From positions 18,555 to 64,014 of the forward strand of contig CAYOKT010000004.1 in assembly GCA_964404605.1 (NCBI GenBank): a DNA stretch of 45,460 nt, in the 5' to 3' direction. A program made the position numbers and the translations under genes. Source of the stretch: an uncultured bacterium (GTDB taxonomy: Bacteria > Electryoneota > Electryoneia > Electryoneales > Electryoneaceae). A model generated the notes under the pieces. The model made no database searches. It saw only the letters and a program-made list of their open reading frames with translations, and was not told where the DNA came from. Below, one piece after another: positions 1,650 to 38,546 of the stretch; position 1 is the stretch's first letter, and the number at the start of each line of letters is the position of its first letter.

Positions 1650-2518
1650 GCCCCGAGGCCGACGGCCAGCATCCCCGGCACCATGATCCACTTCAACCCC
1701 CGCTGCAATCGTCCCGGATTCACCCTGCCGGGCCAGGCCAGCGCCCCGCCCGCCCAGTACGCCAGCGGCAGTCCGACAAGGGGCAGTGAAACAGCAAGAT
1801 ACGGCCATCCGGCCCATCCGGTGAAATAGGGAACCGGGAGCCCCATGGCGGTCAGGATCATCACCAGCGCCGCGGCGCGCAGGGTCCAGCCGGGTCCGGC
1901 CGATGCGGCGAGTGTCCGCCGGCCGGCGGCCCGGTCGCCGGCAACATCCTCCACGTCCTTGATCCACTCGCGCGCGAGGTGGATCGGCCCCGCGAGCAGC
2001 GCCGGGGTCCACCCCGCCTGCAGGTTCCCCGCGGCGAGCGCTCCGAAGAGGAAGCTCGCCGCCGCGCAGACCGCCACGGCGAGGTTTCCCGGGGCGCCCA
2101 ACCCCTTCAGGAACAGGGCGTAGGCCGCGAGCAGCAGCGCGGCACCGGCGGCGAAGGCGGCCAGGGCGAGCCCCCCGGCGAGCGAGAGTGCGACCCCGAG
2201 GAGCATGAGAACAACGCCCGTTCCGCGCGCCCAGGCCTCCGGCAGCAACCCGGAGGGGACGGGCCTGCCGGGCCGGTTCACCGCGTCCTCGGTCCTGTCC
2301 TCGGCGTCGTTGAGCGCATAGGCTCCGGCCGCAATGAGCACCGCCGCGAGGGCGGCGAGCAGGGGCGGCCCCGGTTCGCGCGACCCGCCCTCGAGCATCG
2401 CCAGGGCGGCCCCGAGGAGCACCGCGAGGGCGGTCAGAAGCAGGTTGCCCGGCCGCAGCAGGCGGACATACACCGGCAGGGAGGCGACTCCCGGGCTGCG
2501 TTCCATCGTACCTGTCAC
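1637..2518 (-). CDS. UbiA-family prenyltransferase, digeranylgeranylglyceryl-phosphate (DGGGP) synthase-like
   Basis: LLRPGN at the N-terminus, first Asp-rich motif NDAEDRTEDAVNRPGRPVPSG, second motif REWIKDVEDVAGD..GRRTL, many TM helices. Confidence 0.85.
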   Translation of the reverse strand: MTGTMERSPGVASLPVYVRLLRPGNLLLTALAVLLGAALAMLEGGSREPGPPLLAALAAVLIAAGAYALNDAEDRTEDAVNRPGRPVPSGLLPEAWARGTGVVLMLLGVALSLAGGLALAAFAAGAALLLAAYALFLKGLGAPGNLAVAVCAAASFLFGALAAGNLQAGWTPALLAGPIHLAREWIKDVEDVAGDRAAGRRTLAASAGPGWTLRAAALVMILTAMGLPVPYFTGWAGWPYLAVSLPLVGLPLAYWAGGALAWPGRVNPGRLQRGLKWIMVPGMLAVGLGAWLR

Positions 2519-3636
2519 CGGCGCACCTTCAGGAGGATTCGCCCCTCTTCGACCTGCTCCACGACCAGCAGGACCGACCGGAGGGGGAGCCCGTCCAGCC
2601 GCCCGGCGAGATCCGCCTCGGTTCCCGTGAAGGAGACGCTCAACTGCATCGGTTCCCCGCCCAGGGATCCCATCTCCACTTTTCGCACGCCTTCGAGGCT
2701 CTTCACACGCCGTGCCAGCAACAACTTCTGGCGAAGGGCAAGCCCCTGGACCTCGAGCAGGATTCTCCTGCTCCCCCGGTGGAGCGGCACCAACTCGCTG
2801 ATGATGTCCGCGAGGAACGCCTCGGCGAGCGGACCGGACATGGGAAGGATCGCCTCGGCGGCGGCGGCGCTGTCCGCGCCCGGCTCCGTCTGGAGGCGAT
2901 AGGCGGCGAGCAGGCGGCCCTCGTCCACATCGTGCAGGCGGGCGAGCAGCACCGCCTCGACCACCTCATCGTTCTCCTCGAGTTCGAGGGCGTCTCCACC
3001 TGCTCCGGCGACCTCGACGACGATCAGCCCCTCCATGCCCGGCAGCCGGGAGGTGAGGTCCGGGGGCGAGTCCAGCTCGGCGGTGAGGTACGCCAGGGAA
3101 TCCGTGCTCAACCCCGGCGGCAGCACCTCCGCTCCCGCGACCGGCACTCCCCGGCGGCTCAATTCGCCGCGAAACCGCCCGGAGAACTCACTCCTCAGGG
3201 AATCCAGCTCCTCCCCGGCGACGATGGCCAGGCAACGGGGCAGCCGAACCGCCGCGAGCAGGCGGGAGCGGATCTCCGGCACGCCCAGGAGAGCGCCGAG
3301 CACCCCGCGCCGGGTGTCGCCCAGCCGCAGATGGTACCCGCCCCCGGGGAGCTGTTCCTCGGAGAGCGTCGTGAAGTGGCGGTCTCCCTGGAGGAGATCA
3401 TCGGGAAAGGGCAGGCTCGCGAGGGAATCGGCGGCCGCCTCACTCATCACGGCGCGCAACGCCACGCGGGCGAGATCGTGCAGCGCGGCGCGATACGCCT
3501 CCCGGCGGCCGGCGGCTTCGCCCGTTCCCTCCAGGTCCGAGGGGGGTTGGGCATGGATCGGAAAGGAGGTCAGAACGAGGCCGATCACGAACAGACAGGC
3601 GGCCCTCACCAGGATTCCCCTGCTCATCGTACTCAC
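2515..3636 (-). CDS. Exported hypothetical protein
   Basis: Signal peptide (ILVRAACLFVIGLVLTSFPIHA-Q), typical GC codon usage, stop overlaps the UbiA start; first gene of the leftward operon. Confidence 0.7.
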   Translation of the reverse strand: MSTMSRGILVRAACLFVIGLVLTSFPIHAQPPSDLEGTGEAAGRREAYRAALHDLARVALRAVMSEAAADSLASLPFPDDLLQGDRHFTTLSEEQLPGGGYHLRLGDTRRGVLGALLGVPEIRSRLLAAVRLPRCLAIVAGEELDSLRSEFSGRFRGELSRRGVPVAGAEVLPPGLSTDSLAYLTAELDSPPDLTSRLPGMEGLIVVEVAGAGGDALELEENDEVVEAVLLARLHDVDEGRLLAAYRLQTEPGADSAAAAEAILPMSGPLAEAFLADIISELVPLHRGSRRILLEVQGLALRQKLLLARRVKSLEGVRKVEMGSLGGEPMQLSVSFTGTEADLAGRLDGLPLRSVLLVVEQVEEGRILLKVRR

Positions 3637-3718
3637 TGCGACCCTCCCGGTCCTGCCGGTGCGGCCACCCCCCTCCCTCTCGAAGTATATTGGAAGGTGA
3701 GGCGGCGAGGCACCCTCC

Positions 3719-3746
3719 TTGCGATTGACTGATTGAGTACTAAATT
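3719..3746 (+). promoter_or_regulatory. Putative sigma70-type promoter of the pgs operon
   Basis: TTGCGA (3719-3724), 16 nt, TAAATT (3741-3746) in an AT-rich patch of the divergent intergenic region; the short palindrome ACTAA-A-TTAGT overlaps the -10 box. Confidence 0.4.
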
Positions 3747-3799
3747 AGTGACTTGCCGCGCAGGATGGCTGCATCTACCTGGCCCGGGACAAGCGCGTT

Positions 3800-4978
3800 A
3801 TGCTGGTCATTGTCGTGCTCACTGTGATGCTGCTTGGTTACGGCGTCTATGAATTCGCCGCGCACCGCCAGCGAGTCAAGCAGATCCCCACACGAATCCA
3901 TGTCAACGGGACCCGTGGAAAGAGTTCCGTCACCCGCCTGATCGCCGCCGGTCTCCGCGCCGGCGGCATCCAAACCTTCGCCAAGGTGACCGGTACGATG
4001 CCCCGGATGATCGATGATGAGGGGCTGGAAATCCCCGTCATCCGCCTGCACCCGGTCAACATCATCGAGCAGATCAAGGTGTTCCGCTTTTTCGCCCGGC
4101 GCAAGCCGGAGGCGGTGGTTATCGAATGTATGGCCGTGCTCCCGGAATACCAGTGGATCTGCGAGCACCAGTTCGTCCGCTCCACGGTGGGCGTGCTGAC
4201 GAACGCCCGGCCGGACCACGTGCGCGAAATGGGACCTTCGCTCGAGAATATCGCAAATTCGCTGGCGAACACCATCCCCGCGGGAGGGATTACCTTCACC
4301 TCGGAAACCCGCCCGGAGCTGCTCGACATCTTCCGCCGCCGGGCGGAGGAGAACGGCAGCGAGTTCCACGTCGTCCGGCACAACGAGATTGGTCTCGAGG
4401 AACTGCGCCGGTTCAATTATATTGAGCATCCGGCCAACGTGGCTCTCGCGTTGAGGGTTTGCGAACACCTTGGCGTCGAGCGGGAGACGGCGCTGGGCGG
4501 GATGCACAACAGCTTCCCGGATCCCGGCGCGCTGAAGGTGTACCGTGTCGTGCACGAGAGCGGGCGGAGGATCCTGTTCCTGAACGCGCTCGCGGCGAAC
4601 GATCCCGAGTCCACCCTGCAGGCGTGGGAACGCGCCTGGGCCCTGTACCCGGACACGGGGCGGACCATCGTGCTCTTGAACACCCGGGGGGATCGGTTTG
4701 ATCGCAGCGTTCAGCTTCTCGAGATGGCCGCCCTGCACATGCACTTCGATCTCATCATCTCCATGGGCGAGAGCACCGAGATGCTCAGCCCGCATTTCCG
4801 CCGTGTCGGTATTCCCGGACACAAGGTACACCGCATCGGCACGGTGACGGCGGAGGAGGCCTGGGAAACCATCTGGAACGCGGTCGAGGACGAGGCACTG
4901 GTATTCGCGATGGGTAACGCCGGGCACGGCGGATTGGCCGTGGCCGAGCTGTTCCGGCAGCGGAGGGACACGGCATGA
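3800..4978 (+). CDS. pgsB: Poly-gamma-glutamate synthase PgsB/CapB
   Basis: N-terminal TM anchor, IPTRIHVNGTRGKSSVTRLIAAGL, AKVTGT, NIIEQ, ECMAV, NARPDH..MGP, AANDPEST: characteristic CapB motifs. Confidence 0.96.
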   Translation: MLVIVVLTVMLLGYGVYEFAAHRQRVKQIPTRIHVNGTRGKSSVTRLIAAGLRAGGIQTFAKVTGTMPRMIDDEGLEIPVIRLHPVNIIEQIKVFRFFARRKPEAVVIECMAVLPEYQWICEHQFVRSTVGVLTNARPDHVREMGPSLENIANSLANTIPAGGITFTSETRPELLDIFRRRAEENGSEFHVVRHNEIGLEELRRFNYIEHPANVALALRVCEHLGVERETALGGMHNSFPDPGALKVYRVVHESGRRILFLNALAANDPESTLQAWERAWALYPDTGRTIVLLNTRGDRFDRSVQLLEMAALHMHFDLIISMGESTEMLSPHFRRVGIPGHKVHRIGTVTAEEAWETIWNAVEDEALVFAMGNAGHGGLAVAELFRQRRDTA

Positions 4979-5427
4979 TTGAGGTCGCGGTCGGGCTGGG
5001 GGTGGCCTTCAGCCTGATCTTCAGCGAAATCTTCGGTGTAGCCGCGGGCGGCATCGTGGTTCCGGGGTATGTCGCCCTGCAGTTGAACAACCCCTATGCC
5101 CTCCTGGGCACCTTCATCGTCAGCCTGATCACGTTCGGCTCGGTGCGGATGCTGTCGCTCGTCATCTTCATCTACGGGCGGCGGCGGCTGGTGCTCTCGA
5201 TCATGCTCGGGTTCATCTTCGGCTATCTTTTCCGTCACTATGTCGCTACGGAGATCTACCTTTTCGCCGACATCCGCCTCGAGGCGATCGGGTACATCAT
5301 CCCCGGCCTGATCGCCAACTGGATGGAACGCCAGGGCATGTTGCGAACCATCGCCGCGGTGACCATCGCCTCGGTGGTGGTCCGCCTCGCGGTGATGATC
5401 ATCATGGGAGGGCGGATCGTTGCCTAG
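4975..5427 (+). CDS. pgsC: Poly-gamma-glutamate biosynthesis membrane protein PgsC/CapC
   Basis: 150-aa hydrophobic protein with AGGIVVPGYVAL, IYGRRR and IGYIIPGLIANWMERQG motifs; ATGA overlap with pgsB. Confidence 0.96.
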   Translation: MIEVAVGLGVAFSLIFSEIFGVAAGGIVVPGYVALQLNNPYALLGTFIVSLITFGSVRMLSLVIFIYGRRRLVLSIMLGFIFGYLFRHYVATEIYLFADIRLEAIGYIIPGLIANWMERQGMLRTIAAVTIASVVVRLAVMIIMGGRIVA

Positions 5428-6547
5428 GAAATTCCGCCCTTCGATGCGGTCTCACCGCACCCTCGCAATCCTCACCATCGTGGCGGTTCTCAGCTACCTG
5501 TGGGCGAACAACGCCCGTGTGCAGATCACCGCGCCGCATTTCGAGGAGAAGCTGGCCGCGGCGCGCTGGATGAAGGCCGCGCTGGATACGCTGCGCGCCG
5601 CCCAGTACGCCCGCGGGGTCTTCCCCGACAAGATCAACGATCCGAACCTGACGGCGCTGATCGGGGAACGATATACCCTGATCACCACGGACACCGGCGA
5701 CCTGGACGCCAAGGCCACGGCGCTGAACCCGAACATGGCCGCGGTGATGGTGGAATATCTCCTCGAGGCGGGACTCAAGAAGGGGGACGTTATCGCGGTG
5801 GGGATGACCGGTTCGCTGCCGGGGATGAACCTCGCCCTCCTGGCCGCCTGCGAGACCCTCGGCATCATCCCGCTGGTGATCACCTCGGTCGGTTCCTCCT
5901 CCTGGGGAGCGAACGACCCGAACTTCACCTGGATCGACATGGAATCGCGGCTGGAGAGCGCCGGGTTGCTGCACAACCGTTCCTTCGCCGCCTCCATCGG
6001 CGGGGGCGAGGACGTGGGGCGGCGGCTCTCCCCCGCCGGACGGGAGCTTATCCGCATAGATATCCGGCGAAACGGACTGGAGCTTATCGAGGAGAACACC
6101 CTCGAGGAGAGTGTCGCCCGGCGCATGGCCCTGTTCGAGGAGAAGGCCGCCGGGCGGCCGATCAAGCTGTATGTCAACATCGGCGGAGGGCTGGCCTCCA
6201 TCGGACACTCGCGGAACACCCTGCTCATCCCGACGGGGTTGAACACCCAGCTCCCGGTCCTGAACTATCCGCGCCGCGGAGTGATCCACCGGTTCGCCGA
6301 CCGGGGAGTGCCGGTGCTCCAGGTCTCGAACATCGTAAAAATCGCCGCCGCCTTCGACCTCCCGCGCACACCGAACCCGCTCCCCGAACCCGGCGTGGGA
6401 TCCCTGTTCCGCGAGGTCCGTTACAACCTTCTCGTGGCTACCTTGGCGCTTGCCATCGTCGTGCTGACCCTCGTGGCGGTTCTCTACTTCGACCGCCGCG
6501 CACAACGCTTGGACCGGCCGGGTGTTGACCCGGACACTCTTATCTGA
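5420..6547 (+). CDS. pgsW: Poly-gamma-glutamate system protein PgsW
   Basis: DPNLTALIG..TLITTDTGDLDAK, GMTGSLPGMNLA, SVGSSSWGANDP, SIGGGED, YVNIGG; N- and C-terminal TM helices; directly follows pgsC. Confidence 0.9.
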   Translation: MPRKFRPSMRSHRTLAILTIVAVLSYLWANNARVQITAPHFEEKLAAARWMKAALDTLRAAQYARGVFPDKINDPNLTALIGERYTLITTDTGDLDAKATALNPNMAAVMVEYLLEAGLKKGDVIAVGMTGSLPGMNLALLAACETLGIIPLVITSVGSSSWGANDPNFTWIDMESRLESAGLLHNRSFAASIGGGEDVGRRLSPAGRELIRIDIRRNGLELIEENTLEESVARRMALFEEKAAGRPIKLYVNIGGGLASIGHSRNTLLIPTGLNTQLPVLNYPRRGVIHRFADRGVPVLQVSNIVKIAAAFDLPRTPNPLPEPGVGSLFREVRYNLLVATLALAIVVLTLVAVLYFDRRAQRLDRPGVDPDTLI

Positions 6548-6561
6548 GTAAGGTTTACCCG

Positions 6562-7494
6562 ATGTCTATGAATCCCCGCACGATTGCAGCCCGTTTAACG
6601 CTGGTCCTGTTGCTCCTTCCGCTCGCAGCGCCGCCCGCCGGCGCCGCACGGTGGAAAACCCTCCGCCCGGACGGCGGAAAGAAAACGACCCTCCTGGTCA
6701 AGGAAAAACCCTGGAACTACTGGCGGCTGAAGCCCGGCGAGGAGATGAATTTCACCGTGGACGTGCCCGGCCGGTACAGGGTGATCACCCGCGCGGAACT
6801 CGGCACCCGGATGAAAAAGGAGGCCACCTACACCTTTCGCATCGGAATCGATGACCCCGAGGGTATCCTCTACAGCAGGGCCACGATTCCCGCGAAAACC
6901 GTCCAGCGGAAGGGGAAGGCGAAACTGAAGATCGGCGCGAGACGCACCGTGGAGCTGGAGGTGCCCTCCGGCGCGGAGACGATCACCATTCGTCTCGGGC
7001 GGAAAGCACGGTACCCGGTGTACTTCCGCGTGCAGCGGGAGAACGACATCGCCGCCGGGCGGGTGAACTACGTGGCCATCACCCCGGAGAGTTACCTGGA
7101 CGCCCTGGGCGTTTTCGTGCATGAAGAGGGGGTCACCTATTACTTTATCGACAAGGAGGGCAGCCTGTCCCTGCACGTCAACGGTCCGACGACGCTCAAG
7201 GTGCTGGCCCGCATCCTGATGGACGATACGATGCGCGGACGGATCAAGCTGTCGGTGGCGGTGCACGAGGACGGCGTCCTCAAGAACACCTATGCACTCA
7301 GTACGTCACCGAGCCAGATCGCCGAGGTGCCGGAACGCGCGAATTTGCGCCCCTCGCGCGGTGAATCGTTCTATGTCGAAGTCCCGAAGGGGCGTCACCG
7401 CTACTCCTTCACCCTGCCGGAGAACAACCGGGAGGTGTTCCTCCGCTTCTTCCTCCCCGAGCAGGATCTCGCACGGGAGGCGAAGAGCGAGTGA
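6562..7494 (+). CDS. Exported hypothetical protein made of two homologous beta-rich domains
   Basis: Signal peptide (LTLVLLLLPLAAPPAGA), internal duplication of about 140 aa, 14 nt after pgsW. Confidence 0.8.
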   Translation: MSMNPRTIAARLTLVLLLLPLAAPPAGAARWKTLRPDGGKKTTLLVKEKPWNYWRLKPGEEMNFTVDVPGRYRVITRAELGTRMKKEATYTFRIGIDDPEGILYSRATIPAKTVQRKGKAKLKIGARRTVELEVPSGAETITIRLGRKARYPVYFRVQRENDIAAGRVNYVAITPESYLDALGVFVHEEGVTYYFIDKEGSLSLHVNGPTTLKVLARILMDDTMRGRIKLSVAVHEDGVLKNTYALSTSPSQIAEVPERANLRPSRGESFYVEVPKGRHRYSFTLPENNREVFLRFFLPEQDLAREAKSE

Positions 7495-8702
7495 GCGGGA
7501 AGCCGCCCTCCCGGGATTCAAGCGCGCCCGCACGGAGAGCCCGCAGGGGCACGGCGCGCCGCGCCCCCGCAACACATTCTCACGCGCCCGCGCCGCATCG
7601 CCCGCGCAGCCCATTCCCGTTGCTCGGGCTGTCCGGCCTGCTCCTTGCGCTGCTCACCCTGGCGGCCGGCGCCGCCCAGGCCCGGCCGTGGGACTGGCGC
7701 CGCGACACCGGCGTCCAGTTGCGCTGGCGGATCGGCTACGACAGCAACCTGTTCGACTACTCCGCGAGCGACATCGACCGCTTCCTCGACGGCCGTCTCC
7801 CGCTGGAAACCTCCCTCGCCACCTACGACGACCTGGTGCAGGAGTGGGCGGTCCGCCTGCGGTTCGTCAGCCCCGGCATCCACAACAGGTACAAGACCCG
7901 GTTGTACTACATCGCCGGCTACCGTTCCCACTGGAAGAACCGTTTCGACGACCGGGCCTCCCATTCCCTGCTCCTCCTGCAGCGGACGGTGCGGAAGGTG
8001 GACCTCATCGGCAGTTATTTCTGGATCCCCGACCGCTACCTGCGTGACTACTACGACCGCGATACCGGGCGCGTCTCCGCGACGAAGTTCAGCTATCACT
8101 ACGGCACCGCCGGGCTGAGGGTGCAACTGACACGCTCCCTGCGGGCGGAGATGCGGTATGAAGGCTATGCGGTGTATTACAACCCGCTGTTCACCGAGTA
8201 CGATACGAAGGGCCGCGGGCTGCGCGGGGAGCTCCGCTGGAGGACATCGGACGCCTTGAGCATCACGGTGGAACTCCGCCGCCGCTGGGCGGACAACACC
8301 GGCTACGAGGAATCGACCGGCCTCGCCGCGAGCGACTCGACCCTCGATGCGGAGTACGGGGACGGCAGCTACGGGGAGAGCTGGCTGCAGGTGGGAATCG
8401 ACTGGATGCCGGACCGGCTCGTGGCCGGCCGCGAGTGGAACCTCGGCGCATCCCTTCGGCTGCGCCACCGCTACTACACCAGCGCCCTGCCCCTCTCCGA
8501 GGACCCCTTCCACCGGGGGCGCGAACACCTCCAGCACCTCCTTAAGCTCTCCCTCCAAACCCAGGTATTTCCAGGGATTGACGCCGTCCTCGAGGTCGAG
8601 ATCGAAGGCCGGCGGACCGATTCACCCCTCGACCGCGTAATCGAGGTGAAGGACTACGACACCCGCCGCCTCTGGCTCCGCTTCAGCTACGATCTCTGGT
8701 AG
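7491..8702 (+). CDS. Putative outer-membrane beta-barrel protein
   Basis: Signal peptide ending AAQA, GYDSN motif near the mature N-terminus, alternating aromatic beta-strand pattern, C-terminal LWLRFSYDLW; GTGA overlap with the previous gene. Confidence 0.75.
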   Translation: MSGKPPSRDSSAPARRARRGTARRAPATHSHAPAPHRPRSPFPLLGLSGLLLALLTLAAGAAQARPWDWRRDTGVQLRWRIGYDSNLFDYSASDIDRFLDGRLPLETSLATYDDLVQEWAVRLRFVSPGIHNRYKTRLYYIAGYRSHWKNRFDDRASHSLLLLQRTVRKVDLIGSYFWIPDRYLRDYYDRDTGRVSATKFSYHYGTAGLRVQLTRSLRAEMRYEGYAVYYNPLFTEYDTKGRGLRGELRWRTSDALSITVELRRRWADNTGYEESTGLAASDSTLDAEYGDGSYGESWLQVGIDWMPDRLVAGREWNLGASLRLRHRYYTSALPLSEDPFHRGREHLQHLLKLSLQTQVFPGIDAVLEVEIEGRRTDSPLDRVIEVKDYDTRRLWLRFSYDLW

Positions 8703-8778
8703 GCGGAGCGGGCGCTCGTCCCCTCGCCCGCCGCGCGAAGACTTTTACAGAACCTCTCAGGAAACCTGGCGGGGGTGG

Positions 8779-8829
8779 CCCGGGACTTTTCGCCGCGGCG
8801 TAGCCTTGGCGAAGCCGGGCAGTCCCGGG
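8779..8829. repeat. REP-like nested palindrome
   Basis: Outer inverted repeat CCCGGGACT (8779-8787) / AGTCCCGGG (8821-8829) enclosing CGGC-GTA-GCC-TT-GGC-GAA-GCCG. Confidence 0.55.
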
Positions 8830-8837
8830 TCTCATCT

Positions 8838-9034
8838 CGCATACCCATTCCGATGACACTTCATGGCGGCGGGCCCTCCGGTCCCTGTTCTCCCGAAATA
8901 TTCCTGCGCCTGAACAAGCATGAACCCCTCTGCGCTCCCCGGTCTGATGCGCTATATTCCCTCCGCCGTGCTCACCAAACAGGCGCGAGGACTCGTCTTG
9001 AGCCGCATGCCCCTCCCGATGACACTTCATGGCG
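8838..9034 (+). repeat. 31-nt imperfect direct repeat, two copies
   Basis: cgcatacccattccgatgacacttcatggcg (8838-8868) and cgcatgcccctcccgatgacacttcatggcg (9004-9034); the last 19 nt are identical. Confidence 0.85.
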
Positions 9035-9057
9035 ATTCGCGGGAAGCCTCTCCCCGT

Positions 9058-11190
9058 GTGCGGCGGAGCCGGCGGAAGGGGCGGCGCCCGGGGCGCTTGC
9101 CGCTTCTCCCCGCGATATGCGGCCTTGTACTCCTCGCCCTCGTCCCGACGGGTGCTGTTCAAGCCGGGAACGATGACACTCCTTCTCTCGTCTCCTTGCG
9201 GGGGACCGTGGCGGGGCGGCCCACCACGCAAATGACGGGGGAATCTCCCCGGCCCCTGTCGCGGGCGTCCGCGACCCGCGCCGCGGAGGACACCACGGCC
9301 GCCGACACCCTCGCGCCGCCGGCAACCCCGCCCACCGCCCCGGTGGGACTCCCTCCCGCGGGCGAGAACGCCGCGGACTCTCTCGCCGAATCCCTGACGC
9401 CCCTGCGTGCACGCCCGCCGGAACTCCTCCCGGACACCCTCTCTCCCCCTCCGCCGCCCCCGGGTGTGGTCCGGATGGACCGCGACGACTGGACCGCGTT
9501 CGGGTACAAGGACACGGGCGACATCGTTTCGCTCCTCCCCGGCCTCTTCCCCCGCCACGCCAGCCTCTACGCCGAGCCGTATTACATCGCGCCGCCCGGA
9601 GGGAGCGGGCGCGACCTGCTGGTCCTCTACCGGGGGAGGCCCTACAACGACCCGGTCCACGGCGCGGCGAACTTCTCCCCCTACGCCGTTGAGGAGGCGG
9701 CCCTGCTGGACGCAGCGCCCGGTTGGGGGGGCAGCGGGCCCTCCTCGCCGGGACCGGTGCTCTCGCTCCATCCCCCGTTCGTGTACCCGACGACGCCGAT
9801 GACGCGCATCGTCTACCGCCAGGGGTTCTACGGCCTCGGGCACGCGGACTGGAGGATCGCCCAGAAGCTGAACCGCTCCTTCGCCTACCACTTCGGGCTC
9901 GACATCGGGGAATACGAGGGGCGCTATACCAATTCCCAGGCGGCGACGAGCCTGCTGCGCCTCGGCGCGCGCAGGGACTTCGGCCCGCTGGGCAGCCTCG
10001 AGATCGACTGGATGCAATCGCGCGTCCGGCATGGAGAACCCCTCGGAAGCCGTTCCCTCAGCCAGCACCGCAACGACCTGGACCTTCTCTGGGCCGTGGG
10101 GGATCGCGAGGACCCGGCCCGTCTCGAGACGGCGGGCTGGTACGTGCGCTCCCGGCGCGGCTACGGCACCGGCGAGGAGGACGGCAACCGTCTCGGCGGC
10201 AGGGTATCCCTCTTTCTTCGCGCCGGCCGCCACCATCTCGCCGGGCGCGTGGACTACGAGCGGCAGGCGGCCGCCTTCCAGCCGATCCGCGGTTTCGGAA
10301 CGCCGAAGGGGGAGCGATTCGTCGGGGGGGTCACACTCTCGGACCTGTACACCTCCCCCACCCTGCGCGCCGCGGCGGGGTTTCGCGGCGAGGTGGGGAC
10401 GGTGGGAAAGGTGAACAAGCCGGGCGAGAGACGGCTCCTGCCGATGGCCGGCGGCTGGGCCTCGTTCGACTGGGGCGGGCGTGGCGGACCCGGACTGATC
10501 GGCACCGCCACCCGCGGCTGGCGCTGGCCCGCGCTGGACGAGTCCTACGGCCGCTGGGTCGCCGACCCCCCGGAACGGCTGATGGATCCGGTCCCGCTGC
10601 CGGCGGACGCCGCGAGCTACACGGGGAACGGAGCCCTCGAACCGTTCACCGGCACCTACGCCGGGCTCGGCGCCCGCTGGCGCTTCGACGGGGGGAGGAG
10701 CGTGCAGCTCCTCGCCGGGCTGCGCCGTTGGGGCGGGCCGCCGGAGCCGCGGGAGACCGCCCCCGGCGTGTTCAGCATGAAACCGGGACCCTCACGCGGC
10801 GGGCCGGAGATCACGGGCTCGGGCCGGGTTCCCCTCTACGGGCCCTTCTCCCTGGCGGGCGCATGGACCTACAGCGAGGCGGGCGACCCGGAAGCCCCGA
10901 TTCCGGCTCAATGGGGCTATGGGGGGCTGCGCTTCGAGAACCTGTACTACGACGGTGAGCTGCGGATGCGCGTCTCGCTGAACGCCCGCTACTGGGGCGA
11001 GTGGACGACGACGGCGGGCAGGCAGCCGGCCGGGTGGGTGTACGACGGGGTCATCACCGCGAAAATCTTCGATTTCGAAGCCTACTGGGGCACGAACAAC
11101 CTCCTCGATTCGACCTACGCCTTCCTCCCCGGCCAGCCGATGATGCACCGCGACGAGATCTGGGGCGTGCGCTGGGTGTTGTGGGATTGA
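9058..11190 (+). CDS. Outer-membrane protein with plug-like domain and beta-barrel (TonB-dependent receptor / putative porin-like)
   Basis: Signal peptide LPAICGLVLLALVPTGAVQA, Pro/Thr-rich linker, plug-like GDIVSLLPG..LLVLYRGRPYNDP, many Gly/aromatic beta-strands, C-terminal WGVRWVLWD. Start uncertain: GTG 9058, ATG 9019 or ATG 8920. Confidence 0.75.
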   Translation: MRRSRRKGRRPGRLPLLPAICGLVLLALVPTGAVQAGNDDTPSLVSLRGTVAGRPTTQMTGESPRPLSRASATRAAEDTTAADTLAPPATPPTAPVGLPPAGENAADSLAESLTPLRARPPELLPDTLSPPPPPPGVVRMDRDDWTAFGYKDTGDIVSLLPGLFPRHASLYAEPYYIAPPGGSGRDLLVLYRGRPYNDPVHGAANFSPYAVEEAALLDAAPGWGGSGPSSPGPVLSLHPPFVYPTTPMTRIVYRQGFYGLGHADWRIAQKLNRSFAYHFGLDIGEYEGRYTNSQAATSLLRLGARRDFGPLGSLEIDWMQSRVRHGEPLGSRSLSQHRNDLDLLWAVGDREDPARLETAGWYVRSRRGYGTGEEDGNRLGGRVSLFLRAGRHHLAGRVDYERQAAAFQPIRGFGTPKGERFVGGVTLSDLYTSPTLRAAAGFRGEVGTVGKVNKPGERRLLPMAGGWASFDWGGRGGPGLIGTATRGWRWPALDESYGRWVADPPERLMDPVPLPADAASYTGNGALEPFTGTYAGLGARWRFDGGRSVQLLAGLRRWGGPPEPRETAPGVFSMKPGPSRGGPEITGSGRVPLYGPFSLAGAWTYSEAGDPEAPIPAQWGYGGLRFENLYYDGELRMRVSLNARYWGEWTTTAGRQPAGWVYDGVITAKIFDFEAYWGTNNLLDSTYAFLPGQPMMHRDEIWGVRWVLWD

Positions 11191-13838: not shown

Positions 13839-15233
13839 TCAGAACTTCCCCTGGTAGTAGGTCCCCTTCTTGATCCCGAAGCGCTCGACGAGGCCGGCCT
13901 TCACCAGGGTTTGCACGTAACGGCGCGCCCCGGAGGTCTTCGTGCGCAGAACGTCGGCGATGTCCTGCATGCGGAATTTCTGCTCCTTGCGGGAGAGGAT
14001 GAAGCCGACGATCTTTTCCGCTTTCCCCGGGGTGAAGTTGATCCCGGCGGCGAAGACCCGCTCCACGCCGTTCCGCAACCGTTCCGGGTCCGGTCTCGGC
14101 GAGACCGGCGGGTACGCCGCAACCAGCTCGAGGTTCTCCGGGTAGATCGTTCCCAGGGAGACCAGTTCGGCCCGTTCGAGGACATTGGCGAGCTCACGCA
14201 CGTTCCCCGGCCAGGAATGACGCTCCAGGATACGGAGGGTCTCCGGGTGAAGCTCCTTCGCCCGTATCTTGGCGCGCTGCGCGAGGAGGGCGAGAAAATG
14301 CACGCTGAGAACCGCCACGTCCTCCGGCCGTTCACGGAGGGGCGGAAGGTGGATGGGCAGAATGGCGAGACGGTAGTAGAGGTCAAGCCGCAGGCGCCCG
14401 GAAGCGACGAGGTCCTCAAGGGGCACCTGGGAGGAGGCGAGAATCCGGACGCCGATCCAGTCCTCTCCCGGTTTCTCCTCGTGATCCAGCCGCTCAAGCC
14501 ACTCCAGCAGCGCCGGCTGCACCTCCGGCGACAACCGTGAAATCTCGTTGAGATAAAGCGTTCCGCCGACGGCATCGCCGGGCAGCGGCACGGCGGACTC
14601 CTCGCGCCGCTCCTCGGGGGGCCTGCGGGTGCCGGTTTTCATCGAGGCGGTGATCATCTCCCTCGTCAGGAGGGAGGAGGGGAGATTCACAAAGGGCCCG
14701 GAGCGGCGCGACCCCGCCGCGTGGATCACCCTGGCGACAAGGTCCTTCCCGGTTCCGGTCTCCCCCAGCAGCAGCGTTGTCACCTCGCGCCGGGCGGCGA
14801 TGCGGACGAGGTTGACGACATCCCGCCAGGCCCGCGAGATGCCGATAAGCTGTTCCATGGGCCGGGCGTCCAATCCGAATTCCTCGGCCCACTCGCCGGG
14901 ACGCTCCGGGCGCTCGCGCAGGGGAAACGTCCCCAGGCGGTCGAGCCAGGACTCCCTGGGCCCTCCCCGGCGCATATAGGGTACGGCGGTCTCATGGAAC
15001 GCCGCGCCGGCGTCGCTCTCCAGCAAGTAGCGTTCGATGTCCTCCAGCAACTCGACCGAGGAGCGCAACCTGCTCGGAGGAGGGACCCGCCGTGAGCCAT
15101 CGTGCTTCCTGTACCAGTCCCATGCATCCATCAGGTTGGGATAACTTTTCGGATCCTGCCCCGAGAGGTACGCGGCCGAGTATCGCAACACATTATCGCA
15201 CCAGGACCGGAAGAGGTGATGTTGATCGATCAA
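13839..15233 (-). CDS. NtrC-type AAA+ transcriptional regulator, degenerate (no GAFTGA), with C-terminal winged HTH
   Basis: GETGTGKD Walker A, GGTLYLNEI, DLYYRL, LPPLRERPED, WPGNVREL; TTG start overlapping the upstream stop. Confidence 0.8.
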   Translation of the reverse strand: MIDQHHLFRSWCDNVLRYSAAYLSGQDPKSYPNLMDAWDWYRKHDGSRRVPPPSRLRSSVELLEDIERYLLESDAGAAFHETAVPYMRRGGPRESWLDRLGTFPLRERPERPGEWAEEFGLDARPMEQLIGISRAWRDVVNLVRIAARREVTTLLLGETGTGKDLVARVIHAAGSRRSGPFVNLPSSLLTREMITASMKTGTRRPPEERREESAVPLPGDAVGGTLYLNEISRLSPEVQPALLEWLERLDHEEKPGEDWIGVRILASSQVPLEDLVASGRLRLDLYYRLAILPIHLPPLRERPEDVAVLSVHFLALLAQRAKIRAKELHPETLRILERHSWPGNVRELANVLERAELVSLGTIYPENLELVAAYPPVSPRPDPERLRNGVERVFAAGINFTPGKAEKIVGFILSRKEQKFRMQDIADVLRTKTSGARRYVQTLVKAGLVERFGIKKGTYYQGKF

Positions 15234-16216
15234 GGTTTCTGCTCCCAGGCGACGACCACTCGATTCCGTCCGCTGTTCTTGGCTTCGTACAGGCTTTCAT
15301 CCGCCGCGCGCAGCAACTCCGTCGCGGTGGCATAATTCGGGTCGGGGTAGTACGATGCGCCGATCGAAATGGTCACCTGGCGCATCTTTCCCCCTTCGGG
15401 AGGCGTTTTCTCGCAGAACTGGAACTCTTCGATGTTCTGGCGAAGACGATCGGCGACGAGTTTCACCCCGTCCGGGGTGGTTTCCGGTAGGATGACGACG
15501 AATTCCTCGCCTCCATAACGGGCGGCGATATCGACCCGCCGGACGGTCTGTAGGACGAGTTGGCCGATTTCCCGGAGCACCACATCACCGATCAGATGGC
15601 CGTAATCATCGTTGACCAGCTTGAAATGGTCGATATCGAACATCAAACATCCGAGGTGAATCCGGTAGCGCTTCGCCCGCGCGAACTCACCATCGATCAC
15701 ATCCTCGAAATACTGGCGGTTGTACAACCCTGTCAGCCGGTCGGTGATCGCCTTGCCCCACAGCTCCCGGTTCTCGGCGAGGAGCGTTTCGCGGGTGGTG
15801 AGCAATTGGTGGAACCGGAGGGAGCGGGCGACACGAAACTTGAACTCCTCGATGCGGAAAGGCATGTATACGAGATCATCGGCGCCGAGTTCGAGGGCTT
15901 TCAGGCCGACCTCGTTGCCGAAGGCGGTGGCGATGATCACCGGAATGTCGGCATGAATGGCGCGGATGTTCGTGAGCAGGGTGATTCCATCCATCTCCGG
16001 CATGCGGACATCGGAGATGACAAGCTGATACGGCAACTTGTGCAGTTTCTTCAGGGCCTCGACGCCGTCTCCCGCCTCCGTGACCTCATACTGTCCCTCC
16101 TGCTCGAGAACATCTCTCATCAATTCCCGAGTGGCGGGGTTGTCATCCACGACGAGGACACGGATTTTCCGCCTCTCCTCCGTCGTTTTCTCTTTACGAT
16201 CCGCGGCCAGATTCAT
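15230..16216 (-). CDS. Response-regulator diguanylate cyclase (REC-GGDEF, WspR/PleD-like)
   Basis: VLVVDD, ISDVRMPEMDG, ATA receiver motifs; TDRLTGLYNR, DIDHFK, RRVD I-site, GGEEF. Start set at ATG 16216 (GGAGG RBS, ATGA overlap with nfi). Confidence 0.93.
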   Translation of the reverse strand: MNLAADRKEKTTEERRKIRVLVVDDNPATRELMRDVLEQEGQYEVTEAGDGVEALKKLHKLPYQLVISDVRMPEMDGITLLTNIRAIHADIPVIIATAFGNEVGLKALELGADDLVYMPFRIEEFKFRVARSLRFHQLLTTRETLLAENRELWGKAITDRLTGLYNRQYFEDVIDGEFARAKRYRIHLGCLMFDIDHFKLVNDDYGHLIGDVVLREIGQLVLQTVRRVDIAARYGGEEFVVILPETTPDGVKLVADRLRQNIEEFQFCEKTPPEGGKMRQVTISIGASYYPDPNYATATELLRAADESLYEAKNSGRNRVVVAWEQKP

Positions 16217-16932
16217 TTCGACGAGACCTCCAACCTTTTCCGATATTCGCCCGCGGCGCGATGCGCCGCCCGGATCGGTTCGGGAAGACGATAACGGCCC
16301 AGTGTGCGCATCACCCAACGTACGGCTTCTTCATGCCCGATTCGATGACCGGGGGAGACCCATACAGGTTTGACCCCGCGCCGTGTGCGAAGCACCGTCC
16401 CGATGCGCTCACCCCGATCGCGGCAAATCGACCGGTCCCCTCTCTCCGGGCCCGGTTCGCCGCATACTCCGACGAGACGACTCTTCGCGCATCCCACCGT
16501 GGTCCACCCGGTGACCAGCCCGAGGTGGCTCGCCAGGCCGATTCTCCTCGGATGGGCGATCCCCTGCCCATCCACGAGGACCAGGTCGGGCCGATGCGCG
16601 AGCTTCTCCGCCGCGCGCAGGAGAACCGGGATCTCCCGGTAGGAAAGGAAACCCGGGACATAGGGAAATTCGACCGGCGCCGACACGACGACGAGATCCT
16701 CGAGAACGAGACCCGGCCGGCGGAAGAGGGCAAGCGCGCCGATCATCAACTGCCGGTCCGGCGAGATCGAGGCGTCCGTCCCCAGGATCCACCGGACTTC
16801 CGATTCGCCCGGTCCCCCTTCGACAAGGACCCGCTCCGCAAGACGCAGTTGTTCGTCTCTCGCTTCTTCCATGGAGCCCGGGAGCCGCCAGGCGACAACC
16901 CCGGGCCGGAGAGCACCTCCGCGGGAGTTCAA
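16213..16932 (-). CDS. nfi: Endonuclease V (deoxyinosine 3' endonuclease)
   Basis: FPYVPGFLSYRE, LVDGQGIAHPRRIGLASHLG, VGCAKSRL, KPVWVSPGH, RLPEPIRAAH; start codon uncertain. Confidence 0.95.
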   Translation of the reverse strand: MNSRGGALRPGVVAWRLPGSMEEARDEQLRLAERVLVEGGPGESEVRWILGTDASISPDRQLMIGALALFRRPGLVLEDLVVVSAPVEFPYVPGFLSYREIPVLLRAAEKLAHRPDLVLVDGQGIAHPRRIGLASHLGLVTGWTTVGCAKSRLVGVCGEPGPERGDRSICRDRGERIGTVLRTRRGVKPVWVSPGHRIGHEEAVRWVMRTLGRYRLPEPIRAAHRAAGEYRKRLEVSSK

Positions 16933-37136: not shown

Positions 37137-38546
37137 ATGACACCCTCACAGCCGCCCGCGGGCGGGCGATCCGCATCTTCCCTGCAGCTGGACCAGTTTG
37201 ACGCCGGTGCGCGCCGGCATTCCGGCTACGGCGCGGCACTGGAACACCTCTACGGCCGCCTCGACCTCGAACGCCTCGACCCCGCCCGCCAGGCCACCGT
37301 CAACCGCGACATCACCGCTTTCCGGGCGTTCCTCCGCGGCCTCGGCGATCCCCACCTGGGCCGGCCCACGGTGCACATCACCGGCACCCTCGGCAAGGGC
37401 TCCGTCCTCGCCTCCCTCGAAGCGATCCTCCGCGCGGCGGGGGAGAAAACCGGCGCGACGGTCTCCCCGCACCTCGTCGAAGTGCGAGAGAGGATCCGGA
37501 TCGACGGGGAGAGCCTGTCGCGCGGCCGTTTCGCCGAACTGTACCAACAGCTCCGCCCCGCGGCCGACCGGCGGCCCGCCGGCGGCCATTTCCGCACCGT
37601 GTTCGAACTGCTGACCGCGCTGGCGTTTCACACCTTTCGGGAGGAAAAGGTCGACATCGCCCTGGTGGAAGTCGGGATGGGCGGCAAGCTGGATGCGACC
37701 ATCGTCGTCGAGCCGATCCTCTCGGTGATCACCCGGATCGGGCTCGACCACACGCACGTCCTCGGCGGGACGCGGGGCGAGATCGCCGCCGACAAGGCGC
37801 ACGTGATCAAACCCGGTGCGCCGGCGGTGTTCGCCGCGCAGACCGCCGAGGCGCTGGAGGCCCTCGACCGGCGGGCCGGGGAGACCGGCAGCGAAACCTG
37901 GGCGCTGGGACGGGAAGCCGAGTTTATCGTGAAGGAGGTCACCCCGCAGGGAACCCGCTTCGACCTCACGACGCCGTCGGGCACACACCGGGATCTCTTC
38001 ACCTCCCTCCCCGGCCGGCACCAGGCGGAGAACGCCGCCACGGCGGTGCTCGCCGCCGACCGGATGGCGGCGGACGGCCGGGTTCTCCTCGATGAGGGAG
38101 CCATCCGCGCCGGGCTCGCGGAGACGAAATGGCCGGGTCGAGGCGAGTTGCTCCGCCGTGAACCGCCCCTTCTGCTGGACGGGGCGCACACCCCCGAGGC
38201 GGCGCGGGCCCTCGCGCGGATGGTCGCGGACCTGTGGCCCGGCGCCCCCCTGCGCCTGCTCCTCGGCTTCAACAAGGACAAGGACATCGAGGGGTTCCTC
38301 GACGCCTTTTCCCACCCTCCAGAGCGCGCCCTCGCCACCGCCGCCCCCACCCCCCGCGCCCTGCCGGCGGAAGAAGCGGCGGAGCGGATGCGCCGCCGCG
38401 GCTGGAGAGTGGACATCATCGGGGCCGACGAGGCGCTCGGAACCGCCCTGGACGGCGCCGATCCCGGAGAAGTCACCGTGGTCGCGGGCAGCCTGTACGT
38501 GGTGGGCATGGTGCGACGCCAGTGGTTGCACGGTTCACGGCGGTAG
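37137..38546 (+). CDS. folC: Bifunctional folylpolyglutamate synthase / dihydrofolate synthase
   Basis: HITGTLGKGS, SPHLVEVRERI, TVFELLTA, VEVGMGGKLDAT, IGLDHTHVLG, WPGR, LDGAHTP, AGSLYVVG. Confidence 0.93.
   Translation: MTPSQPPAGGRSASSLQLDQFDAGARRHSGYGAALEHLYGRLDLERLDPARQATVNRDITAFRAFLRGLGDPHLGRPTVHITGTLGKGSVLASLEAILRAAGEKTGATVSPHLVEVRERIRIDGESLSRGRFAELYQQLRPAADRRPAGGHFRTVFELLTALAFHTFREEKVDIALVEVGMGGKLDATIVVEPILSVITRIGLDHTHVLGGTRGEIAADKAHVIKPGAPAVFAAQTAEALEALDRRAGETGSETWALGREAEFIVKEVTPQGTRFDLTTPSGTHRDLFTSLPGRHQAENAATAVLAADRMAADGRVLLDEGAIRAGLAETKWPGRGELLRREPPLLLDGAHTPEAARALARMVADLWPGAPLRLLLGFNKDKDIEGFLDAFSHPPERALATAAPTPRALPAEEAAERMRRRGWRVDIIGADEALGTALDGADPGEVTVVAGSLYVVGMVRRQWLHGSRR

Follow-up and report, generated by a model that had tools for sequence, protein, structure and literature searches.

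The closest described relatives of the system reported here are the poly-gamma-glutamate (PGA) synthases of Bacillus, PgsBCA(E) or CapBCA(D)E, in which PgsB and PgsC come first and PgsA, a protein anchored in the membrane and carrying an extracytoplasmic domain, comes third. In Bacillus anthracis, CapD attaches PGA to peptidoglycan. The passages on PGA in a 2017 survey of capsules model these systems as CapB plus CapC with optional CapA, CapE and CapD, and list no outer-membrane part (PMC5542703). For exopolysaccharides, AlgK-AlgE, PgaA, BcsC and PelBC combine an inner-membrane synthase, a periplasmic polymer handler and a barrel pore encoded in one operon. We analysed a stretch of 45,460 nt (contig CAYOKT010000004.1; hereafter the window, whose positions are used as coordinates throughout) from the 96% complete genome of an uncultured bacterium of the phylum Electryoneota, and found that the block at 3800-8702 follows the same logic with a polyamide as substrate. 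It encodes true family members of PgsB and PgsC, followed by PgsW (TIGR04332) where Bacillus has PgsA, and by two extra genes, for a periplasmic protein of 310 aa (P310) and an outer-membrane barrel, which the one-membrane Bacillus does not need. All five genes lie on the plus strand:

3800..4978, plus strand: pgsB, poly-gamma-glutamate synthase ligase subunit (TIGR04012, Mur_ligase_M)
4975..5427, plus strand: pgsC, synthase membrane subunit (TIGR04011, PF14102 CapC), with a 4-nt overlap with pgsB
5420..6547, plus strand: pgsW, 'poly-gamma-glutamate system protein' (TIGR04332), with an 8-nt overlap with pgsC
6562..7494, plus strand: P310, secreted protein with two tandem jelly-roll domains (residues ~29-165 and 167-305), from a signal-like segment, a structural model and structure matches
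7491..8702, plus strand: outer-membrane beta-barrel, open reading frame (ORF) of 403 aa, 14 strands, proposed conduit, from a structural model and structure matches

That these five genes form one functional system is very likely. We further consider it moderately probable that pgsB-pgsC-pgsW-P310-barrel is one operon encoding a machine that makes PGA and passes it over the periplasm and the outer membrane, the export step being read from the context of the genes. The overlaps and the 14-nt gap between the genes, their conserved order and the lack of a PgsA in the genome argue for a single operon. In the scheme that we propose, PgsB and PgsC, judging from their family membership, would polymerise glutamate at the inner membrane. 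PgsW would take the place of Bacillus PgsA, with a helix at each end in the inner membrane and a periplasmic domain that may receive the nascent chain. P310, whose fold suggests that it could bind the polyanion, would bridge PgsW and the barrel, a link supported by natural fusions. The 14-stranded, CymA/OmpG-like barrel would be the outer-membrane pore, where conserved loops (L1 and L4-L7) and strand ends might form a specific constriction or gate.

The first three genes were assigned with NCBIfam and Pfam profiles. PgsB scores 416.4 bits against TIGR04012 (cut-off 222.7, E 8.5e-125), its residues 2-384 covering profile positions 1-379 of 380; PgsC scores 121.9 bits against TIGR04011 (cut-off 96.45) and 113 against PF14102 CapC (cut-off 27, E 1.5e-32); and PgsW scores 322.3 bits against TIGR04332 (cut-off 100). 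In the ORF map pgsB and pgsC overlap by 4 nt, pgsC and pgsW by 8 nt, and P310 and the barrel by 4 nt, with 14 nt between pgsW and P310, and the five co-directional genes have the coordinates that a preliminary description of this DNA had given them. That description had also remarked that CapA/PgsA and CapD are missing from the locus, and this was borne out. No match to PGA_cap (PgsA/CapA, PF09587) was found anywhere in the genome, while the same search found PGA_cap in 7 of 14 reference genomes; the sole gamma-glutamyltranspeptidase (CapD family) gene of the genome, present in a single copy, lies on another contig.

A first kind of evidence that the two extra genes belong with pgsBCW is the conservation of gene order. 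The window's phylum, which belongs to the FCB superphylum according to a paper on Antarctic metagenome-assembled genomes (MAGs), is represented in the genome collection by 79 species genomes, including MAGs labelled Ca. Hatepunaea, Ca. Tariuqbacter and LCP-89 and some labelled 'Calditrichaeota' or 'Zixibacteria'. A barrel homolog was found in 39 of 41 genomes of this phylum. When about 15 kb were fetched around each of the 38 barrel homologs outside the window, all five genes appeared in the same order at 35 loci, and two more loci were cut by contig ends. Since the barrels of other families of the phylum are only 24-30% identical to that of the window, this conserved order does not reflect recent shared sequence. 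A scan with the barrel alignment, using one genome per species, extended the survey to other phyla. In the best 80 of 104 relatives, a set that overlaps the 38 loci of the phylum, the five genes stand together at 71 loci, 7 are cut by contig ends and two Cloacimonadota loci have the barrel alone. The 71 five-gene loci include about 30 Cloacimonadota MAGs, two Neomarinimicrobiota, one Bacteroidota and one 'Gemmatimonadota', and the labels Zixibacteria and Calditrichaeota also occur among them. A survey that started from PgsW gave a similar picture: among the best 80 of at least 580 metagenome loci, 43 have at least 2.3 kb downstream of pgsW, and 41 of these carry P310 and the barrel there, while the 37 truncated loci carry as much of the cluster as their contigs have room for.

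A few of the five-gene contigs bear labels that fit poorly, namely Puniceispirillum or Alphaproteobacteria (L073, L084, L086 and L088) and Bathyarchaeota archaeon (L101). A cluster with a bacterial outer-membrane barrel on an 'archaeal' contig of 6 kb (L101) suggests a binning or labelling error.

Presence and absence of the genes agree with their order. PgsW is found in 77 of the 79 genomes of the phylum. The two exceptions, which are 92-94% complete and belong to a single genus of the window's family, are devoid of PgsB, P310 and the barrel as well; pgsC was not searched for in these two. Likewise, the barrel is present in 114 of 121 Cloacimonadota genomes and all seven that lack it also lack PgsW. 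Of 201 Bacteroidota genomes drawn evenly, one of them already known to carry the cluster, 5 have PgsW; the barrel is found in 4 of those 5 and in none of the 196 without PgsW. In the three newly found Bacteroidota the barrel match shares the contig and strand of the PgsW match and starts 1.1-1.3 kb past its end.

Several loci depart from this pattern and weigh against the reading of the five genes as a single machine. In one genome of the window's own family (G008), pgsB-C-W-P310 are on one contig and the barrel is on another, beside a flagellin gene. Two Cloacimonadota genomes (G079 and G080, one of them a complete chromosome) have pgsBCW, no detectable P310, and a barrel located beside hisS. 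Two of the 43 metagenome loci with sufficient downstream sequence have P310 but no adjacent barrel. In a Bacteroidota genome (G239; locus L239, G239:C60:19000-27530, genes at 2521-8530 of the locus), a divergent pgsB-pgsC-pgsW is followed by a DUF6305 protein, an unassigned 431-aa ORF and an AstE/AspA-like gene in place of P310 and the barrel; these genes may represent a second type of accessory module. The PgsW family may also reach Spirochaetota, Aminicenantota and Bipolaricaulota, according to an Atlas lead. These exceptions indicate that the module is common but not obligatory. Three ORFs that follow pgsW at such loci were considered and rejected as counterparts: a 315-aa ORF in a Cloacimonadales chromosome (L148) as P310 (hhalign probability 0.1; Pfam DUF2971), and the 301-aa and 431-aa ORFs of G239, which are not homologs of P310 or the barrel.

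The unlinked barrels of G008, G079 and G080 could be taken to mean that P310 and the barrel are an unrelated envelope module that merely sits beside pgsBCW. We find this extremely improbable, given that the order has been kept in several phyla at protein identities of 21-30%, that none of the 196 Bacteroidota without PgsW carries a barrel, that the absences are concordant in 2 plus 7 genomes, and that fusions with both neighbours exist.

These fusions offer a further line of evidence. In three Cloacimonadota genomes, reading of the DNA shows that pgsB-pgsC-pgsW are followed by one unbroken frame of 648, 654 or 640 codons, in which both P310 domains come first and the barrel follows, with no evident second signal peptide at the junctions. 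A search of 1.84 billion representative proteins (representatives of clusters at 50% identity) with a profile of the barrel family returned 943 members at E<=0.001, of which 654 pass 1e-10. The best 150 of these 943 representatives include 8 fusions of a P310 domain with the barrel and 5 chains that contain both PgsW and the barrel, with a P310-like domain intervening in 3 of the 5. Six of the P310-barrel fusions open with a signal-like segment, and none of these six has another hydrophobic stretch ahead of the barrel. Two further proteins, one of which comes from NCBI and has two member sequences, are fusions of PgsW and P310; after the second PgsW helix they show a short basic loop, then a hydrophobic segment, and P310 beyond it. 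Such an arrangement places P310 in the periplasm, and the fusions together imply that P310 works attached to either neighbour. The fusions that contain PgsW were seen as database proteins and are suggestive; the five PgsW-barrel proteins (P0083, P0087, P0093, P0125 and P0148) are each a singleton cluster at 90% identity from one contig, which counts against the weight that they can bear. An apparent frame of 1128 codons spanning PgsW, P310 and barrel in a Bacteroidota MAG (G082:C78; L104 6712-10098) was discarded as a fusion, its translation giving in-frame stops between the genes. The preliminary description had made co-occurrence of the downstream genes with pgsBCW in other genomes the touchstone of its proposal, and for P310 and the first barrel gene the order, the presence and absence and the fusions speak strongly in its favour.

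P310 had been described as an exported protein with tandem domains, and the model agrees. A hydrophobicity scan finds a signal-like hydrophobic segment at residues 8-26, tblastn detects an internal repeat, and the predicted structure (predicted local distance difference test, pLDDT, 91.6; predicted template modelling score, pTM, 0.64) consists of two beta-sandwich domains, the lower pTM being as expected for two loosely coupled domains. Each domain has the beta-jelly-roll fold of the carbohydrate-binding modules (CBMs) of families 35, 36, 6 and 51: domain 1 matches these with Z 10.3-9.1 (103-115 residues aligned, root-mean-square deviation, rmsd, 2.8-3.3), domain 2 matches CBMs with Z 7.4-7.6, and Foldseek ranks tandem CBM51 and CBM22 highest for P310. 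Ligand binding by CBM35 and CBM36 is mediated by calcium. The jelly-roll domain of the cellulose synthase subunit BcsB (residues 53-185), a protein that guides its polymer through the periplasm, is matched by domain 1 with Z 8.1. At 5-17% identity the likeness to CBMs and BcsB is one of fold alone, and such scores are common for jelly rolls. P310 has no family in Pfam or NCBIfam, and a sequence-profile search of the PDB gave nothing meaningful; a match to Poly_export (PF02563) in 1 of 37 homologs, at E 0.027, is noise and does not make P310 a member of that family. On the basis of the model, we propose that P310 is a periplasmic adaptor that binds the polymer.

A fold of the polymer-binding type would also suit capsule retention, in which the barrel and P310 would tether PGA to the outer membrane, maybe with P310 displayed on the surface by the barrel, much as Slam barrels and autotransporters do with their cargo. 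The lack of a CapD-type gene in the locus fits this idea, and so does the position of P310 N-terminal to the barrel in the fusions, which is the layout of autotransporters. Some likeness to Slam proteins points the same way: the barrel has 14 strands, as Slam barrels do, the Slam domain SlipAM occurs in 19% of the members of one Atlas neighbour cluster, and a sub-threshold TPR_Slam match falls on the N-terminal tetratricopeptide repeat (TPR) region of one barrel-family member (P0137, discussed below). However, SlipAM (PF04575) itself is absent from all 37 barrel homologs in a Pfam search at E<=1, and inspection by eye of the signal regions of P310 homologs revealed no lipoprotein cysteine. In addition, the PgsW-P310 fusions tether P310 to the inner membrane, so that it must be periplasmic unless the hydrophobic segment is cleaved, and a retained polymer would still need a route over the outer membrane. 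We regard retention as unlikely.

The product of 7491-8702 had been taken for a beta-barrel, and the model supports this. The model and the charge counts below were made on a construct encoded by window positions 7608-8702 (364 residues), whose residue numbering we use; in the ORF that starts at 7491 the numbers are higher by 39. Built from an alignment of 37 sequences, the model (pLDDT 91.4, pTM 0.85) has 14 strands with long and short connections in alternation. A signal-like segment is present in the hydrophobicity scan and the last residue is a tryptophan, an aromatic C-terminal residue being found in 21 of 37 homologs. The Pfam family OMP_b-brl is matched by 8 of 37 homologs (best E 9.8e-5), and the barrel itself has no Pfam or NCBIfam family and no meaningful relative in a sequence-profile search of the PDB. 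Public records call its homologs simply 'hypothetical protein'. As to its start, the GTG at 7491 overlaps the stop of P310 and yields about 40 Arg/Pro/Ala-rich residues ahead of the signal-like segment; an in-frame TTG at 7620 lies at the onset of that segment, homologs begin close to their signal peptides, and this TTG could be the true start.

In structure comparisons the barrel is matched best, over almost its whole length, by two 14-stranded monomeric channels, CymA of Klebsiella oxytoca (Z 23.8, 292 residues, rmsd 3.6) and OmpG of E. coli (Z 20.3, 243 residues, rmsd 3.0), which are also the best Foldseek matches. With 9-10% identity and no Pfam or PDB sequence match, the fold is common to both without implying common descent. 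Moreover, CymA and OmpG are sugar uptake channels, whereas the barrel described here has conserved polar loop residues specific to its family and another gene context. The pores of exopolysaccharide systems give lower scores (PgaA, Z 14.7; PelB, 13.9; BcsC, 13.4; AlgE, 10.9), all below CymA, OmpG and FadL. They have 16-18 strands (AlgE, PgaA, BcsC and PelB) against 14 here, and their periplasmic partner is built of TPRs, where that of the present system would be a pair of CBM-like jelly rolls. One member of the barrel family among the best 150 does match the TPR-barrel architecture of PgaA and BcsC: P0137 (668 aa; JGI; source name 'Flp pilus assembly protein TadD') carries TPRs over about 250 aa ahead of the barrel. 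The analogy that the preliminary description drew with AlgK/AlgE or PgaA thus holds for the principle, since an adaptor plus a pore fits the predicted folds, but not for kinship, the barrel being 14-stranded, CymA/OmpG-like and not a relative of AlgE, PgaA or BcsC.

The same description had argued from the abundance of Arg that the barrel is a channel for a polyanion, and had asked for an electropositive lumen. The window barrel does contain 44 Arg, and a crude count of inward-facing strand residues gives its lumen a net charge of +8. Beyond that the argument fails: with 7 Lys and 49 Asp plus Glu in the 364 residues the net charge of the protein is only +2, and Arg takes the place of Lys in a high-G+C genome, so that we reject Arg richness as a general sign of a polyanion pore. 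Three properties of the family moreover speak against a simple pore of this type. The whole-protein net charge of aligned homologs varies from -27 to +12; the lumen, by the same crude count, is not consistently electropositive, with a mean of +1.8 and a range from -5 to +8 across the 37 aligned sequences, the window's included; and E197, D199, D252 and D299, all conserved loop residues, are acidic, which would not be expected. A few basic residues are nevertheless fixed although the lumen is not generally electropositive.

In an alignment of 143 barrel-family representatives (median identity to the window barrel 22%), 17 positions are conserved in at least 85% of sequences: Y44, N47, S52, D74, D75, N111, P141, R146, F195, E197, D199, D252, D299, H302, R305, R335 and K348. 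Most of the conserved positions fall in extracellular loops or at extracellular strand ends, and loops L1 and L4-L7 stand out by their conservation and their polar residues (Arg, Lys, His, Asp, Glu); this placement assumes the usual topology, with both ends of the barrel in the periplasm and the long connections outside. In outer-membrane proteins it is usually the extracellular loops that vary most. The conserved residues, E197, D199, D252, D299 and H302 among them, could therefore mark an active site, and the barrel would then be an outer-membrane enzyme, a hydrolase or transpeptidase that trims, releases or sizes PGA at the surface, instead of or besides being a pore. OmpT, an outer-membrane enzyme whose active site lies at the extracellular rim, sets a precedent for such a site. 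On the other hand, no known outer-membrane enzyme outranks generic barrels in the structure comparisons, where the channels CymA and OmpG come first, and substrate-specific channels also have conserved loops that fold inwards. An enzyme seems to us quite unlikely, and we prefer the pore, with the loops as its constriction or gate. In a bolder version of this proposal, which we put forward tentatively and hold to be doubtful, PgsW, P310 and the barrel, three families without known relatives that are widespread in FCB phyla, would make up a new type of trans-envelope secretion apparatus for a polyamide, consisting of one polypeptide in some lineages, and the Asp/Glu/His/Arg cluster of the loops would be a metal-dependent gate or a catalytic site that releases the chain.

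PgsW would be the inner-membrane end of this route. A basic N-terminus and a hydrophobic segment, both recognised by eye, precede a domain of about 300 aa, and a hydrophobicity scan places a strong transmembrane helix at residues 337-355, followed by a basic tail; the predicted topology is N-in/C-in, with the ~300-aa domain in the periplasm. The layout of two helices flanking a large periplasmic domain is, we take it, like that of Wzc-type co-polymerases, but Wzc/Wza pairs have no sequence relation to PgsW, P310 or the barrel. A search of 28 aligned members of the PgsW family for PGA_cap (PF09587) gave no match at E<=1, and a sequence-profile search of the PDB gave no meaningful relative of PgsW.

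A stand-alone paralog of PgsW (~300-360 aa) occurs in four families of the window's phylum, without pgsB, pgsC, P310 or barrel nearby (L133, G020:C3; L135, G021:C1; L138, G069:C1; L141, G017:C1; also L134, L136, L137, L139, L140, L142 and L143). It adjoins a gamma-glutamyltranspeptidase gene in 3 of the 4 loci examined, and 2 of those also encode a DctM-like transporter and an AstE/AspA-like hydrolase. A sigma-54 activator is encoded near one of the paralogs (L141). The loci with the paralog and the gamma-glutamyltranspeptidase look like clusters for the breakdown or uptake of PGA, and their gene content hints that the PgsW domain handles PGA itself.

If PgsW-type domains also serve in what appears to be PGA breakdown, P310 and the barrel might act in uptake or sensing, returning external PGA or its fragments to the periplasm, where they would be reused or act back on synthesis, and it is true that CymA and OmpG are uptake channels. 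Yet none of the 11 fetched loci with a stand-alone PgsW paralog has the barrel and P310, which instead accompany the synthase genes. Both are translationally coupled to pgsW, and in some proteins they are fused to the synthase-linked PgsW. An uptake or sensing role is, accordingly, very unlikely in our view.

The literature that we searched held nothing relevant on PgsW, PgsF or TIGR04332, and no description of an outer-membrane PGA exporter or of the two extra genes. A study of Cloacimonadota (ISME J 2026) found the PGA gene (K01932) in 99% of digester genomes and described the operon as one of three genes (PMC13082233). The words 'outer membrane' and 'export' do not occur in the main text of PMC13082233, whose supplement (Fig. 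S10 shows the operon) could name more genes. What would be new here is a synthase-linked polymer secretion system with an outer-membrane barrel, assembled from parts unrelated to known exporters and serving a polyamide. The analysis names two concrete candidate proteins for the passage of PGA over the outer membrane, which form one evolutionary unit with pgsBCW across several phyla, and the natural fusions indicate which parts touch. The family is large, with its 943 representative clusters, and almost universal in the window's phylum and in Cloacimonadota, which are key in anaerobic digesters; the system could matter for PGA production in hosts with two membranes.

Two other features adjoin the block:

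3637..3799, no strand assigned: putative promoter region of the operon, between an opposite-strand ORF (2515-3636) and pgsB
8920..11190, plus strand: neighbouring gene for a signal-bearing protein of 756 aa, outside the system according to tblastn and the positions of its orthologs

A scan of the locus found no sigma-70-type promoter consensus, so that the promoter at 3637-3799 is deduced from its position and not seen, and terminator-like sites were no more frequent than by chance. The upstream genes with family matches (RodZ-like, Maf and UbiA) and the downstream ones (radical-SAM-like, thioredoxin-reductase-like and isochorismatase) are all on the minus strand, which bounds the block on both sides.

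The sixth gene, separated from the barrel ORF by a gap of 217 nt, had been proposed as a second barrel gene of the machine, and this part of the proposal is refuted. A tblastn comparison gave no match to it at the 38 homologous loci. All 15 other genomes of the family, the two without the PGA system included, have an ortholog (38-49% identity), but never at the PGA cluster; on contigs that hold both, they lie tens to hundreds of kb apart. With unlinked orthologs that persist without the PGA genes, we reject the gene as a component of the system. Its product has no Pfam or NCBIfam match, and we class it as an independent envelope protein, an unrelated neighbour.

About 5 kb downstream of the cluster, on the minus strand, lie two genes of another kind: 13839-15233 encodes a sigma-54 activator-like ATPase, and 15230-16318 a response regulator that contains a GGDEF diguanylate cyclase domain. 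Further along, a second Mur-ligase-type gene (37137-38546, plus strand; Mur_ligase_M and Mur_ligase_C), followed by a gene for an LVIVD-repeat protein, probably belongs to ordinary cell-wall or folate metabolism.

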